From contig JBASTN010000046.1 of assembly GCA_049274915.1 (NCBI GenBank), positions 6,519-70,518 on the forward strand: a stretch of 64,000 nucleotides of DNA, written 5' to 3'. This stretch comes from Solirubrobacterales bacterium (lineage in GTDB: Bacteria > Actinomycetota > Thermoleophilia > Solirubrobacterales > JACPNS01). Below are positions 9,648 through 55,939 of this stretch, piece after piece. The notes beneath the pieces were generated by a model. The model ran no database searches, was not told the DNA's origin, and saw only the letters and a program-made list of their open reading frames with translations. Both the position numbers and the translations under genes were made by a program. Within the stretch, counting starts at the first letter, position 1. Each line of letters begins with the position of its first letter.

Positions 9648-10046
9648 CTACTCCGCGCGGTCGAGGTTCGCCGTCGCGCGACGCAGACGTTCACGCGCCG
9701 CACCAAGCCGGTCGGCGATGTCGTCAGCAGAGATCGCGCCGGCCCTCGCGTCGTAAGCGGTGATCTCGTCTGCAGGCATTGCATCGCGAACGCTCCGCGG
9801 GACACGATGGTCGGAAGCAACGGGGTCGGAAGCAACGGGGTCGGAAGCAACGGGATCAGCTGTGTCGCGCGTGTCGCGCACAACGATCTCGCCGGCCGCG
9901 GCTTGTGCCTCGGCGTCGCGCTGCTTCAGCGGCGACGGTGCGATCGAAGCGAAGTCAAAGCCCGGGTGGACTTTCTCGCCGTGCTCTGCGCGAGCTGCGC
10001 TGGCGGCGATTACCTCTTCAAGCGTGGGGCGTCCAAGTGGCGACAT
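9648..10046 (-). CDS. Hypothetical protein containing 3x DPVAS repeat
   Basis: I place the start at ATG 10046 (MSPLGRPTLEEV...). The longer track ORF would extend into group II intron domains V/VI. No family recognised. Confidence 0.4.
   Translation of the reverse strand: MSPLGRPTLEEVIAASAARAEHGEKVHPGFDFASIAPSPLKQRDAEAQAAAGEIVVRDTRDTADPVASDPVASDPVASDHRVPRSVRDAMPADEITAYDARAGAISADDIADRLGAARERLRRATANLDRAE
9811..9855. repeat. 15-bp tandem repeat x3 (TCGGAAGCAACGGGG), in frame, encodes DPVAS x3
   Basis: Direct reading of the sequence at 9811-9855. Confidence 0.9.
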
Positions 10047-10153
10047 CACTACACATTGAACCGCTTCCGACGGACGGCTGTCGCGCGCGCCGCCTCGCAT
10101 CAAATCGCTCACGCTGGGCCGCGCAGCACGGTCATCTACCAAGCGCGGTCCTG

Positions 10154-12034
10154 ATCGGGTAGGAGCCGGGCTCACCCCGGCTCCCCCCACACCACCTAGC
10201 ATGCGGGTCCGCACTAGGCGGTTCGCTCAACTTCCCGAAAACGTCGGTAGGGATTGACAAATCCCTTCAGTCCAAGCTGGTCCCAGTAGTCATTGGGCAG
10301 TGCCCGCTGGAGGACGGCGGTGCCTGCGATTCGCCAGTAGCCCTTGCGTGAGAGTGCCCATTGGTGAGCCTTCTCCTCGGGGATTCCCAGCGCTCGCAGG
10401 TTGCGGCGACGCGTGCGCCACCGCTTCCATTCCTTCCAGCGAACTTGCCGCAAGCGACGCCTGAGCCAGCTGTCGAGTGCGATGAACGGCGTAGGCGTAT
10501 CAGCCAACGAGAAGTAGGCCGTCCACCCAACCGTGAACTTGTTGATCTCACGAATGCGCCACCGCATCGAGACGCCCCACTTGCGAGAGGTCAGCTTGCG
10601 GATTCGAGCCTCGGCGCGCTTGCGCGCCTTGGGATCGATCCGCAGCTTGACCTCGCCCTTGCGGCGAAAGAAGCCGAACCCGAGAAAGGTTCGGCGTGTC
10701 GCCGGGGCAACCGCTGACTTGCTGCGGTTGACCTTGAGCCTCAGGCGTCCTTCGACAAACTGCGTTGTGCTGTCCATGACTCGCCCTGCCGCCCGTTTGC
10801 TGTTGACGTAAATCATCACGTCGTCGGCGTAGCGGACGAACTTGTGGCCGCGACCTTCCAGCATCCCGTCGAGGTCGTCGAGCATGATGTTGGCCAGCAG
10901 CGGCGAGAGCGGGGAGCCTTGTGGCGTGCCTTCCTCGCTTAACTGCTTGACCTCATCAACGACGACGCCTGCAATCAGGGACTGCCGGATTAGGCGCAGC
11001 ACTTGCTTGTCGGATACCCGTCTTGCAATCCGCGCCATCAGAGCGTCGTGGTTCACCCGATCAAAGAACGAATCGAGATCAAGATCGACGACCCACCCTG
11101 CGCCTTTAGCGATATGGCGACGAGCCGCCAAAACAGCGTCGTGCGCAGAGCGCCCGGGGCGAAAGCCGAAGCTTGCCGCCGAGAAGTGCGGATCGAACAC
11201 GGGAGTTAGCACTTGCAGAATGGCCTGCTGGATCAAGCGATCCAGCGCCGTTGGCACCCCGAGGCCCCGGCTTCCGCCGGCGGGTTTTGGGATCGTTACC
11301 CGCCGGACAGGTTCCGGCCTGTGGGTGCCCGCATTGAGCCGAGCACGAACGTCTGGCCAGTGCCGATGAAGCCACTGGCGCAGGTCATTGGTGCTCATCC
11401 CGTCGATGCCAGGGGCACCGGCGTTCTGCTCGACGCGTTTGAGTGCCCGCGCAAGGTTCTCGCGGGAAAGGAGTTCTTCCCACAGGTCGCTTGCATGGGC
11501 CGGGTCAGGCGTGGTCTTGCCCTGCGCCGGATTCTCGCTGTGCTCTTGGGCGGGGCGCGTTGGCTTCACCGCTGCGCCTTTCGCTCAAGGCTCCTTGCGG
11601 AGTTGGCTGCGTTGATTGCGAGATTCGCGAGCAAGGGCATCCTGTTCCTGTTGTTTTGCGTTCGGTCCTTCCCGGCTGTTGATCCCGCCGGTAATACGAC
11701 CTCTGCTGACTTCTCTGCGGCGAGCCGCGGCTTTGCAGCCACGGTTGTCATTTGACACCCGCAGAGATCTCCCGGGATAAGGCCAGACACCTTCACCGCA
11801 CTCCCGCCGCATCTACGTTGTGATCCCTTGATGGCATTGGGCTTCGTCGTGTTTGGCCGACTCGCCCGGATCACCCCGCCTTGTATGCGATTCGTGTTCC
11901 TCGGGTCGCGGATTCGCCTCGGGCTTCCTTCCCACCCCGCCTCGCGGCGACGCAGTTGCCTCTGACTTGTGGTTGGAGACATCATCCTCCACAGGGGACT
12001 TTCACCCCCGAGCGTCTGGTCATGCCCGGCGTAC
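10154..12034 (-). mobile_element. Group II intron, bacterial class C (IIC)-like, ~1.88 kb, with intron-encoded RT/maturase
   Basis: - 5' end: GUACGCCGGGCAUG at 12034, followed by GGGGGUGAAAGUCCCC, GAGGAACACGAA and AGAAGUCAGCAGAGGUC...GGGAAGGACCGAAC motifs.
- Domain V at 10222-10191: 9-bp lower helix with CGC and a G.U wobble, 4-bp upper helix, 2-nt 3' bulge.
- A GUG linker follows.
- Domain VI at 10187-10157: bulged A at 10160, 7 nt from the terminal GAU (10156-10154). Confidence 0.85.
10214..11569 (-). CDS. Group II intron reverse transcriptase/maturase (no endonuclease domain)
   Basis: 451 aa. It has RT motifs (GIDGMS, RRVTIPKPAGGSRGLGVPT, PQGSPLSPLLANI, YADDVMIYV) and a maturase/X-like C-terminus. 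It ends without an HNH region. Confidence 0.93.
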   Translation of the reverse strand: MKPTRPAQEHSENPAQGKTTPDPAHASDLWEELLSRENLARALKRVEQNAGAPGIDGMSTNDLRQWLHRHWPDVRARLNAGTHRPEPVRRVTIPKPAGGSRGLGVPTALDRLIQQAILQVLTPVFDPHFSAASFGFRPGRSAHDAVLAARRHIAKGAGWVVDLDLDSFFDRVNHDALMARIARRVSDKQVLRLIRQSLIAGVVVDEVKQLSEEGTPQGSPLSPLLANIMLDDLDGMLEGRGHKFVRYADDVMIYVNSKRAAGRVMDSTTQFVEGRLRLKVNRSKSAVAPATRRTFLGFGFFRRKGEVKLRIDPKARKRAEARIRKLTSRKWGVSMRWRIREINKFTVGWTAYFSLADTPTPFIALDSWLRRRLRQVRWKEWKRWRTRRRNLRALGIPEEKAHQWALSRKGYWRIAGTAVLQRALPNDYWDQLGLKGFVNPYRRFREVERTA

Positions 12035-12040
12035 CAATAG

Positions 12041-12073
12041 AAAGGCCGCACCCGGAGTCCGGGCACGGCCTTT
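12041..12073 (-). terminator. Intrinsic terminator hairpin of ino1
   Basis: The minus strand reads AAAGGCCGUGCCCGGACUCCGGGUGCGGCCUUU. 13 of 15 stem positions pair, with a 3-nt loop and a U-run at the 3' side. It starts 27 nt after the ino1 stop. Confidence 0.7.
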
Positions 12074-12100: not shown

Positions 12101-13483
12101 CTACTTCTTGGCTGCGACCTTGCGCTTGGCGGGGGCGAGCTTGGCGGGGGCGCGTTTGGCGGGGGCGCGTTTGGCCGGTGCCGCCTTGCGCTTGACAGCG
12201 CTCGCGCGACCGGCGCCCGCCTTGGCTCGGGTTGCGCCGAGCTTCGGCTTGCCAGCGTTCATGGCGATGAACTTCTCGGTGTCGATGCGTGCCTGCGCGT
12301 CGGGGCGCTGGTTCTGCGGCGACTTCATCAGGTACGACGACGGTCCGTCGAGCTGACCGCTGATGCCGTTGTTGAGCGCGAGCTTGCACATACGCACTGC
12401 GTCGATCACGATGCCGGCGCTGTTGGGCGAGTCCCAGACCTCGAGCTTGAGCTCGACGTTGAGCGGCACGTCACCGAAGGCCTGGCCCTCGACGCGAATG
12501 TGCGCCCACTTGCGGTCGGTCAGCCACGGCACGTAGTCGCTCGGGCCGATGTAGACGTCGTCGGCCGGGAGCGTGTGCTCCATGATCGAGGTCACGGCAT
12601 TGGTCTTGGAGATCTTCTTGCTCTCAAGACGCTCGCGCTCGAGCATGTTGTAGAAGTCCATGTTGCCGCCGACGTTGAGCTGCGAGGTCTTGACCATCTT
12701 CACTCCGCGCTCGCCGAACAGCGTGGCCAGCTGACGATGAACGATCGTCGCGCCGACCTGGCTCTTGATGTCGTCACCGACGATCGGCAGGCCGGCCTTC
12801 TTGAAGCGCTTGTCCCAGTAGGGCTCGCGGGCGATGAACACGGGGATGCAGTTGACGAAGCCACAGCCGGCCTCGAGGATCTGCTCGACGTACCACTTGG
12901 TCGCGTCTTCGCTGCCGACCGGCAGATACGAGACGACTACGTCGGTGCGTGTGTCTTTGAGGATCTTGACGATGTCGGCAGTCTCACCGGGGGCCTTGGT
13001 GATCTTCTGCTTGAGGTACTTGCCGAGTCCGTCGTGGGTCATACCGCGCTCGACGGTTACGCCGAGCTTCTTCGGGACCTTGGCGAACTTCATCGTGTTG
13101 TTCGGGTCGGCCCAGATCGCCTCGCCGAGGTCTTTGCCGACCTTCTTGGCGTTGATGTCGATCGCGGCGGAAAACTCAATGTCGCTGATGTGGTATCCGC
13201 CGAGGTCGACGTGCATCAGGCCGGGGACATCCTGCGTAGCGTCGGCGTTCTTGTAGTACTCGACGCCCTGCACGAAGGCGCTGGCGCAGTTACCGACGCC
13301 GATGATCGCCACGCGGACTTTGTCGCTCTGGTAGCGGGCGGCGCCGTTTCCATTACGGGCGGCACCGTTACGGGCGGCGCCGTTCTTGACGGCACTTGCT
13401 GAAGTTGATTTGCGGGCGGCTGCGCTGGTGCGCGCCGCGCCATTTGACTTGTTGCTGCCGGACTTCTTGGGGGCAGGACTCAC
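12101..13483 (-). CDS. ino1: myo-Inositol-1-phosphate synthase with basic low-complexity N- and C-terminal tails
   Basis: The core [25 protein letters not shown]...[12 protein letters not shown]...[15 protein letters not shown]...[25 protein letters not shown] matches actinobacterial Ino1. The start is GTG at 13483, preceded by GGAAGGA. Confidence 0.9.
12126..12185. repeat. 15-bp tandem repeat x4 inside the ino1 3' end (encodes the APAKR-type tail)
   Basis: TTGGCGGGGGCGCGT-type units read directly from the sequence. Confidence 0.85.
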
Positions 13484-13734: not shown

Positions 13735-14418
13735 TCAGGCCGCGGCGGCGCGCTGCGCGTCGATCTTCTTGCTCTCGCGATAGACATGTGCGATGCGCTG
13801 GAACATCGTAAAGAGGCTGAGGCCGGCGAGCAGGTAGACGCCCGATTTCAGCAACGATACGTCGACGAGACCGCCCAGGCCGTTGGCAAAGAACAGCGCG
13901 ATCGAGATGATCACGACGCGTACAGCGCGGTTGGCGATCCCGACCTTGCACTCGATTCCGAGGGCCTCGGCGCGGGCGCGTGTGTAAGAGACCATCAGCG
14001 ACCCAAGCACGGCGAGCACGACCGCCGCGACTGCAACCTCGTCGTTGCCGGAGTAGACGCCAGCGTGTCCGGTGACGAACTGCATCGCGATCACCGTCAA
14101 AACGATGCCCTCTTCAATGCGGTCGAGCGAGCTGTCGAGGAAGGCGCCAAACAGCGTCGCCTTGCCGCTCATCCGCGAGTACTTTCCGTCGAGCAGGTCC
14201 ATGCATGAACCGAGCACGAAGGCGACGCCGGCGAGCACGTATAGCTGCTGCGTAACCAGCGCGGCGGCGGCGATGTTGCCGACTAGGCCGGTCATCGAGA
14301 TCGCGTTCGGCGTCAGACGCGAATCGATCAAACGGTTGCGCGCGGAGTCAGAGAGAATCTGGCCGCGCTGGCGATCGGGTGCCTGGCGATCGGGTGCCTG
14401 GCGATCGGGCGAGCTCAC
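13735..14418 (-). CDS. CDP-alcohol phosphatidyltransferase (phosphatidylinositol-phosphate synthase-like)
   Basis: Has the family motif DLLDGKYSRMSGKATLFGAFLDSSLDRIEEG (DGx2ARx8Gx3Dx3D type) and multiple TM helices. I prefer GTG 14418, which forms a GTGA overlap with the upstream gene stop, over the track start 14496, which would give an 82-nt overlap. Confidence 0.8.
   Translation of the reverse strand: MSSPDRQAPDRQAPDRQRGQILSDSARNRLIDSRLTPNAISMTGLVGNIAAAALVTQQLYVLAGVAFVLGSCMDLLDGKYSRMSGKATLFGAFLDSSLDRIEEGIVLTVIAMQFVTGHAGVYSGNDEVAVAAVVLAVLGSLMVSYTRARAEALGIECKVGIANRAVRVVIISIALFFANGLGGLVDVSLLKSGVYLLAGLSLFTMFQRIAHVYRESKKIDAQRAAAA
14371..14410. repeat. 15-bp tandem repeat x2.7 (GCGATCGGGTGCCTG), encodes DRQAP repeats at the N-terminus of the CDP-alcohol transferase
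   Basis: Direct reading of the sequence. Confidence 0.9.
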
Positions 14419-50536: not shown

Positions 50537-50608
50537 GGGTCCTTAGCTCAACTGGTAGAGCATCGGGCTTTTAACCCGGCGGACAGGGTTCGAGTCCCTG
50601 AGGACCCA
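50537..50608 (+). tRNA. tRNA-Lys (anticodon TTT)
   Basis: GGGTCCTTAGCTCAACTGGTAGAGCATCGGGCTTTTAACCCGGCGGACAGGGTTCGAGTCCCTGAGGACCCA. Acceptor is GGGTCCT/AGGACCC, the anticodon loop is CTTTTAA, and the T arm is CAGGG-TTCGAGT-CCCTG. Confidence 0.95.
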
Positions 50609-55867: not shown

Positions 55868-55939
55868 GGCCCGATCGTCTAATGGTTAGGACGTCGGCTT
55901 TTCAAGCCGAAAACCGGGGTTCGACTCCCCGTCGGGCTA
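55868..55939 (+). tRNA. tRNA-Glu (anticodon TTC)
   Basis: GGCCCGATCGTCTAATGGTTAGGACGTCGGCTTTTCAAGCCGAAAACCGGGGTTCGACTCCCCGTCGGGCTA. The anticodon loop is TTTTCAA, the T arm is CGGGG-TTCGACT-CCCCG, and G1.U72 is a wobble pair. Confidence 0.92.

Follow-up and report, generated by a model that had tools for sequence, protein, structure and literature searches.

General features of the intron

Class C (IIC) group II introns, with B.h.I1 of Bacillus halodurans and O.i.I1 of Oceanobacillus iheyensis as references, are compact retroelements whose distinguishing features were described by Toor et al. 2006 (PMC1702495). These include a CGC catalytic triad and a distal stem of domain V (D5) that is 2 bp shorter, an AGGAA motif that was named IIC-specific, a pairing of only 3-4 bp between intron-binding site 1 (IBS1) and exon-binding site 1 (EBS1), the absence of EBS2, an EBS3 as in IIB introns, and a stem-loop that replaces IBS2. 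Class C reverse transcriptases (RTs) go together with IIC RNA, lack an endonuclease (En) domain, and are associated with terminators as targets (PMC4424553). Analysis of a 64,000-nucleotide stretch of the genome of a Solirubrobacterales bacterium (contig JBASTN010000046.1; further referred to as the window) revealed an element of 1881 nt on the minus strand (12034..10154), downstream of the gene ino1, that is with high confidence an intact IIC group II intron retroelement; conservation with relatives spans exactly these positions. All IIC hallmarks known from B.h.I1 (PMC1702495) were found, namely the CGC triad, the D5 distal stem shortened by 2 bp, the AGGAA motif, a 3-bp EBS1, no EBS2, an EBS3, and a stem-loop at the place of IBS2. 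The intron is of an ordinary type, the element being new and its kind already well known. A preliminary description, made from the sequence alone, had called it an 'IIC-like' intron downstream of the ino1 hairpin; its main features were all recovered, none displaced by more than 1-2 nt, and the RT match, the Rfam models and the covariation described below raise this to IIC.

Domain IV (D4) contains the open reading frame (ORF) of an RT/maturase (11569..10214, minus strand; 451 amino acids, GTG start codon, UAG stop codon). The RVT_1 domain (11293-10673; E-value 5.7e-40) and the GIIM maturase domain (10621-10391; E-value 1.8e-19) were the sole Pfam matches in these 451 amino acids, no HNH/En family being found, and a YADD motif was read from the sequence at 10831-10820, so that the minus-strand ORF with YADD, a maturase region and no HNH/En was confirmed as previously reported. 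The class of the RT was judged by a phmmer search against all Protein Data Bank (PDB) chains. The best matches were IIC RTs and not those of another class, namely the GsI-IIC RT of Geobacillus stearothermophilus (PDB 6AR1; E-value 3e-148, query residues 29-446 aligned to chain residues 3-419), the E. rectale IIC maturase (8e-104), and the RT domains of R. intestinalis and E. rectale (about 1e-82, down to 5e-82). The ORF is uninterrupted and aligns across the whole GsI-IIC RT, ending level with the C-terminus of this En-less protein; the window RT differs by about 27 extra N-terminal residues. Its host also differs from that of GsI-IIC, being a high-GC Solirubrobacterales actinobacterium. Within the ORF, a consensus scan for terminators flagged a hairpin with a T-rich tail (10673-10695, minus strand), which is probably a chance match, as two such matches occurred in the region versus a mean of 2.6 in shuffled sequences.

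On the RNA level, the core of domain I (D1) matched the Rfam model group-II-D1D4-3 (RF02001; 11951-11782, minus strand) with 136.6 bits (E-value 4e-28) over model positions 1-170 of 170. The alignment with this model, together with that of the relatives, placed the AGGAA motif in an 11-nt unpaired stretch, GUGGGAAGGAA (11935..11925). A second model, group-II-D1D4-1 (RF01998), matched 11747-11665, including GAAGUCAGCAGAGG, with 58 bits (E-value 8e-08) over positions 1-84 of 84; this region presumably represents domain II, J2-3 and domain III, as in other IIC introns. Both matches were obtained at curated thresholds, and a match of D5 and domain VI (D6) to RF00029 (Intron_gpII; 10223-10154; 41 bits, threshold 40) was obtained with relaxed filters. 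In the window, the three matches occur in the correct order on a single strand. The RNA outside the ORF amounts to about 525 nt (1881 nt less the 1356-nt ORF), in agreement with a compact ribozyme of about 0.4-0.5 kb.

Relatives, boundaries and exon recognition

Scanning genomes, one for each species, yielded 593 relatives, of which the best 79 loci were retained. Among these 79, the closest relatives were 69-70% identical in the RT and occurred in metagenome-assembled genomes (MAGs) of Solirubrobacterales, and others, at about 50-55%, came from Geobacillus, Bacillus, Alicyclobacillus, Acidobacteriota and further taxa. Profile and covariance-model searches located 67 5' ends and 84 D5/D6 matches, and covariation on the D1 side was examined in an alignment that comprised 61 distinct relatives over their first 420 nt. 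Against six relatives from unrelated insertion sites, the similarity was seen to begin precisely at GU(A/G)CG, corresponding to position 12034 of the window, and to stop precisely at CCUACCCGAU, corresponding to 10154, the flanks being unrelated. Over the 61 distinct relatives, all from other genomes, the conserved part opens with GU(A/G)YG and closes with CGAU. The intron starts with GUACGCCGGGCAUG, its terminal pentamer GUACG (12034..12030) being a variant of the consensus GUGYG. Of 59 3' ends so defined, 55 were GAU, and the window intron ends in AU. Relatives with both ends located measured 1804-1982 nt.

Recognition of the 5' exon could be traced by covariation. The antiparallel covariation partners of exon positions -1, -2 and -3 are intron positions 180, 181 and 182 (mutual information 1.0-1.3 bits; 93-97% standard pairs in 59-60 relatives), pointing to a CAA as EBS1 in a terminal loop of D1 (11855-11853, minus strand), facing the IBS1 UUG, the final three nucleotides of the 5' exon (12037-12035). 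No covarying partner was found for exon positions -4 to -7 within the first 420 nt of the 61 relatives. Because of this pattern, EBS1 is, as far as comparative data go, three nucleotides long, and EBS2 is predicted to be absent. The EBS1-IBS1 covariation therefore predicts, as evidence separate from the alignment, a 5' splice site at 12035|12034. The 5' end at 12034, as previously proposed, is confirmed by both approaches, homologous introns aligning from this position and EBS1 covarying in register with the three preceding exon nucleotides; neither pointed to a junction at the GUGCG at 12051 or elsewhere. On the other side, the column covarying best with exon position +1 was intron position 222 (mutual information 0.55; 89% standard pairs in 56 relatives), making G11813 the likely EBS3 and C10153, the 3' exon's first nucleotide, its IBS3. 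Recovery of the exon-binding sites from covariation alone indicates that a set of about 60 relatives is adequate for finer structural inference.

Some relatives were arranged as head-to-tail tandems of IIC introns (L019:2494-6370, L026:2376-2454 and L033:4308-4386). In Alicyclobacillus sp. ALC3 (L019), the last bases of two introns (4375 and 6257) abut the first bases of the next (4376 and 6258), a third 5' end being located at 2494; the arrangement in L026 and L033 is the same. In two of the tandem introns, EBS1 (AUU in L019, AUC in L026) pairs with the GAU at the end of the same intron, so that the D6 hairpin together with this GAU apparently imitates a target site. Another peculiarity of two close relatives, L001 (2650-2700) and L002, is a 32-nt insertion in D1, GGUGCAGCGAGGCUGUUCGGGCUUCGUUGUGC (alignment columns 248-279), which looks like an extra hairpin and is found neither in the window nor in other close relatives.

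Domains V and VI and the position of the RT stop codon

D5 (10222-10191, minus strand) consists of a 9-bp lower helix, a 4-bp upper helix UGCG/CGCA and a GACC loop. It carries the CGC triad (10220-10218), the G of which is in a G.U wobble and which is aligned to the AGC of the RF00029 consensus, and a UG bulge (10201-10200) in the fold of the sequence. The alignment with RF00029 contains a 4-nt gap in the distal stem, which corresponds to the lack of 2 bp relative to the general consensus. In 20 relatives, the D5/D6 positions were paired for 99.3%, with compensatory changes in seven pairs and an invariant CGC; the observed pairing or covariation score was reached by none of 500 shuffles, and slid registers paired for only 36-47%. 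The D5 fold thus stands as first described, including its triad, wobble, upper helix and bulge, and both RF00029 and a clade-specific D5/D6 model place these domains at the same position.

D6 extends from 10189 to 10156 (minus strand), with a basal helix of 10189-10186 with 10159-10156 (a U.G pair and three G-C pairs) and a UA bulge (10161-10160) with a G opposite. Its A10160 is the predicted branch point, located 6 nt before the 3' splice site. This register is adopted because 10187 covaries with 10158 (G-C in 11 and A-U in nine of the 20 relatives) and 10182 with 10164; it leaves a D5-D6 linker of 1 nt. The preliminary description was right about the bulged A10160, the seventh nucleotide from the 3' end, and wrong about the register, as its D6 at 10187-10157 with a 3-nt GUG linker is off by one pair and was rejected in view of the 10187-10158 covariation. 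According to Monachello et al. (PMC4748821), most group II subclasses keep the branch point a fixed 6 or 7 nt away from the 3' splice site, and a basal helix of 3 bp is typical of the majority of IIC introns. The window intron agrees with most IIC introns in its 6-nt spacing and differs from most of those described in having a U.G pair besides its three G-C pairs.

The UAG stop codon of the RT (10216-10214, minus strand) lies within the 5' strand of D5. This observation of the preliminary description holds, and the position is not unusual, as 12 out of 78 relatives stop in or beyond D5. This survey comprised relatives with an ORF of over 350 codons, the window being counted among them. In 65 cases, 3-19 nt separated the stop codon from the first D5 pair downstream of it, and in one further case (L041) 74 nt. 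It fell within D5 in four cases, including the window and L022 (with the same UAG), and in D6 or beyond in eight, including the Solirubrobacterales introns L001-L003, of which the ORFs extend into D6 where that of the window ends in D5. Conversely, the ORF of a Geobacillus zalihae relative (L009) stops 7 nt before D5. The stop codon of the window intron is accordingly placed as one point of a clade continuum as far as the sequences indicate, with a D4 predicted to have nearly no 3' spacer. In such an arrangement, a ribosome terminating on the RT ORF would necessarily sit on D5 or unfold it.

Insertion site downstream of ino1

The upstream host gene, ino1 (13483..12101, minus strand), encodes a myo-inositol-1-phosphate (inositol-3-phosphate) synthase (Pfam Inos-1-P_synth; E-value 1.2e-35), of which the orthologues in Solirubrobacterales MAGs are 88-93% identical and likewise assign the window to this order. 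Its stop codon is followed, after 26 nt and on the same strand, by a hairpin in the 5' exon (12074-12040; 35 nt, 16 bp including two G.U pairs, and a 3-nt loop ACU), which is the presumed ino1 terminator and target motif; five unpaired nucleotides (UAUUG) separate it from the intron. A hairpin of 33 nt starting 27 nt after the stop codon had been reported, which is correct as to its presence and slightly off in both measures. A GUGCG decoy in its stem, noted at the same time, is indeed present (12051-12047) and irrelevant as a splice site. The 50 nt preceding the window intron fold at -33.8 kcal/mol. Likewise, the 45 nt preceding the introns of relatives had a median folding energy of -20.9 kcal/mol versus -10.4 kcal/mol in controls from the same loci (Mann-Whitney p = 2e-23), with 76% of the relatives versus 18% of the controls folding at -15 kcal/mol or below. 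Their hairpin usually ends 0-9 nt upstream of the intron, and the last 8 nt before the intron consist of T for 58%, versus 22% in controls. Given its position and this family habit, the ino1 hairpin presumably acts as a working terminator.

It is rather unlikely, yet worth considering, that the hairpin is no functional ino1 terminator and that the intron recognised a mere inverted repeat, just like those IIC introns that use attC sites or other stem-loops. The reconstructed tail UAUUGCAGG is poor in U, in line with the negative outcome of the consensus scan, and IIC introns have also been found after 'other inverted repeats' (PMC1702495). In contrast, the window contains a GC-rich stem of 16 bp on the strand of ino1, 26 nt past its stop codon, and the relatives overwhelmingly follow a hairpin with a T tail. 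Moreover, terminators with poor U tracts are common in high-GC Actinobacteria. As for attC, the IIC-attC introns (e.g., S.ma.I2) possess the same class C RT and also target a stem-loop (PMC4424553), but they insert at the attC sites of integrons, whereas the target in the window is a hairpin after a housekeeping gene. Insertion at attC was not indicated and no integron context was visible, as the target directly follows ino1, with housekeeping neighbours in orthologous loci; integrase and gene cassettes were not searched for.

The four closest ino1 loci (88-91% identity) are devoid of the intron, the next gene starting 41-128 nt past ino1. Upstream synteny was kept in all four, with genes for an abhydrolase, a membrane protein of about 600 amino acids and a CDP-alcohol phosphatidyltransferase, followed by ino1. 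Downstream of ino1, gene content varies between the closest relatives.

Predicted life cycle

Established IIC biology allows the steps of a life cycle to be proposed for this intron. The intron would be transcribed through read-through from ino1, and its RNA would fold into a six-domain ribozyme. The 5' exon would be found via three pairs only (EBS1 CAA with IBS1 UUG) and the preceding stem-loop, and the 3' exon via the single EBS3-IBS3 pair G11813-C10153. Self-excision may then proceed through branching at A10160 or through hydrolysis. Finally, the ribozyme and its own En-less RT/maturase would reverse-splice into DNA just past other terminator-like hairpins, DNA copying being primed at replication forks. 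Splicing, branching and mobility are thus expected for the window intron by analogy with its class.

Several observations weigh against an intact and active IIC intron at this terminator. Only one copy occurs in the 64-kb window, the RT, the 5' end and D5/D6 all being single, and the nearest relative is merely 70% identical in protein, so that recent activity is not demonstrable. The RF00029 match exceeds its threshold by just 1 bit, and the higher score with the clade-specific D5/D6 model (84 bits) was obtained for a sequence that is itself among the 20 used to build that model. The consensus terminator scan did not flag the ino1 hairpin, the T tail of which is weak (UAUUG, followed by CAGG after removal of the intron). 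None of the four orthologous ino1 loci offers an empty site at the base level, their intergenic DNA being too diverged. Two metagenome matches to the 21-mer junction GCCTTTCTATTG^CAGGACCGC (L080:242-262 and L081:2056-2076) were considered as empty sites and rejected as chance matches, as their flanks are unrelated, diverge at once and have a lower GC content. In collections of metagenome size, 21-mers recur by chance. Exact-sequence look-ups of the RT and ino1 for further copies returned none on record.

Some of these points would also fit an intact-looking but immobile, possibly non-splicing, single-copy relic that persists downstream of ino1, a reading that is considered unlikely. Besides the single copy in the window and the 70% identity of the closest relative, the GC content of the intron (62.8%) is near that of the window (63.8%), suggesting long residence, and in vitro splicing of IIC introns is poor when their protein is absent (PMC4748821). 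A relic would, however, have to combine all this with an uninterrupted ORF, a YADD motif and full-length alignment with the GsI-IIC RT. Furthermore, all ribozyme pairings tested are intact, including EBS1-IBS1 and EBS3-IBS3 at the present site, and no decay is visible.

The 5' end and its proposed contact with domain I

The A at position 3 of the window intron had been put forward as unusual with respect to GUGYG, and indeed the reference introns B.h.I1 and O.i.I1 have a G at this position. The claim of unusualness was not borne out. The 67 5' ends located, tandem copies included, began with GUGUG (31), GUACG (16), GUGCG (15), GUGGG (4) and GUAUG (1). Position 3 turned out to covary with position 258, forming a G-C combination in 45 and an A-U combination in 16 of the 61 distinct relatives, without exception, the mutual information being 0.83 bits versus 0.43 for the next best column. 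On a neighbour-joining RT tree, the state of this pair switches at least five times, always on both sides. One such reversal occurred within the Solirubrobacterales clade of the window itself, in which L001-L003 have GUGCG with C258 and L004 has GUACG with U258 like the window; in the Geobacillus zalihae relative, the comparison excludes the 5' end, cut off by the end of its contig. Because U258 accompanies A3 in each of the 16 GUACG introns among the 61 distinct relatives, A3 is, on these comparative grounds, best regarded as a compensated variant that is accommodated and not aberrant. The comparative data show the GUACG 5' end to be a recurrent compensated state and not a defect, which may help annotators who call intron boundaries by GUGYG. 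No relevant report was retrieved by a literature search for GUACG in group II introns.

In the window, the Watson-Crick covariation partner of position 3 is U258 (11777), which forms, with A257, an A-U dinucleotide (11778..11777, minus strand) in the internal loop that adjoins helix I(i). Position 258 lies directly 5' of the 3' strand of this helix (intron positions 259-263; 11776..11772), which is identified by covariation with the 5' strand (intron positions 6-10; 12029..12025), positions 7-10 covarying with 262-259 at 100% standard pairs. A257 is invariant and could pair with U4 in GUGUG introns. The contact between 3 and 258, together with that between 257 and 4, is likened to the epsilon-epsilon' pairing, which comprises 2 bp (PMC4424553), and the 3-258 pair may accordingly be named an epsilon-epsilon'-type tertiary pair. 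Toor et al. 2006 (PMC1702495) apparently gave the name epsilon' to the AGGAA stretch. G100-U101 of this stretch are complementary to A3-C4 in the window, allowing two Watson-Crick pairs. Among the relatives, position 3 is compatible with 101 in 57 out of 61 cases and position 4 with 100 in 42 out of 61, G.U pairs predominating and covariation being scant, so that pairing of 3-4 with 101-100 is, judged by the alignment, much weaker than pairing with 258.

The 3-258 contact is perhaps undescribed, as position 258 adjoins helix I(i), while the 2006 literature puts epsilon' at the AGGAA stretch. Similarly, a switch between translation and catalysis is conceivable, since throughout the clade the end of the RT ORF is no further from D5 than a ribosome footprint, and in the window it lies inside D5. 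It is nevertheless improbable, and speculative at present, that the covariation of 3 and 258 reveals an IIC 5'-end contact not previously described from comparative data (a relocated epsilon' or a base triple) and that the position of the RT stop codon near D5 prevents RT translation and ribozyme catalysis from taking place together on a single RNA molecule.

It is hardly credible that the true 5' splice site is the GUGCG at 12051 in the hairpin, with the GUACG at 12034 being internal, for although GUGCG fits the textbook consensus, relatives at unrelated sites show no similarity upstream of the equivalent of 12034, the CGG of the exon that would precede 12051 cannot pair with the EBS1 CAA as the UUG before 12034 can, and sixteen relatives begin with GUACG, each with U258.

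Comparison with other class C introns

The most similar introns, L001-L004, are unannotated in their Solirubrobacterales MAGs. Their RTs are 69-70% identical to that of the window, and their ribozymes are alignable throughout. Like the window intron, all four are located a few nucleotides past GC-rich hairpins, at different genomic sites. The Geobacillus zalihae relative is 55% identical to the window and shares the D5/D6 architecture (AACCGCC...GGUGGU, a CGC triad and a CUAC(Y)CGAU 3' end). Compared with the reference intron O.i.I1, which has no ORF, the window intron possesses an RT ORF. Although the class of the RT was assigned from pairwise matches to PDB chains, it is practically out of the question that the intron belongs to some other bacterial class without En (A, D, E or F, with a IIA- or IIB-like RNA) and only resembles IIC, given the much poorer RT matches to LtrA (IIA; 9e-35) and T.el4h (IIB; 1e-31), an E-value gap of about 110 orders of magnitude, an RNA with a CGC triad, a shortened D5, AGGAA, a 3-bp EBS1 and no EBS2, and the presence of GsI-IIC-type Geobacillus introns among the relatives. 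With this locus, the known IIC introns gain an apparently intact one with well-defined ends, from a high-GC order of actinobacteria that has received little study; otherwise, its features reflect textbook IIC behaviour and open no new question.

Neighbouring features in the window

The 3'-exon side contains an ORF (9648-10060, minus strand) without Pfam match, which encodes a threefold DPVAS repeat derived from a tandem array at 9809-9854. Its listed start lies within the intron, so that any real gene here would have to start further downstream, perhaps near 10055. This array is one of four tandem repeats with a period of 15 nt around the intron (9809-9854, 12122-12175, 13353-13384 and 14368-14409), each comprising 2-3.6 copies with 92-100% matches. 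They lie in or beside coding DNA: one corresponds to the Lys/Ala/Pro-rich C-terminal tail of the ino1 product, another encodes part of its N-terminal NGAAR extension, and a third is within the gene coding for CDP-alcohol phosphatidyltransferase. Other RNA genes of the window, unrelated to the intron, are those of a bacterial large signal recognition particle RNA (102 bits) and three tRNAs, at 1019-1213, 870-941, 50537-50608 and 55868-55939.

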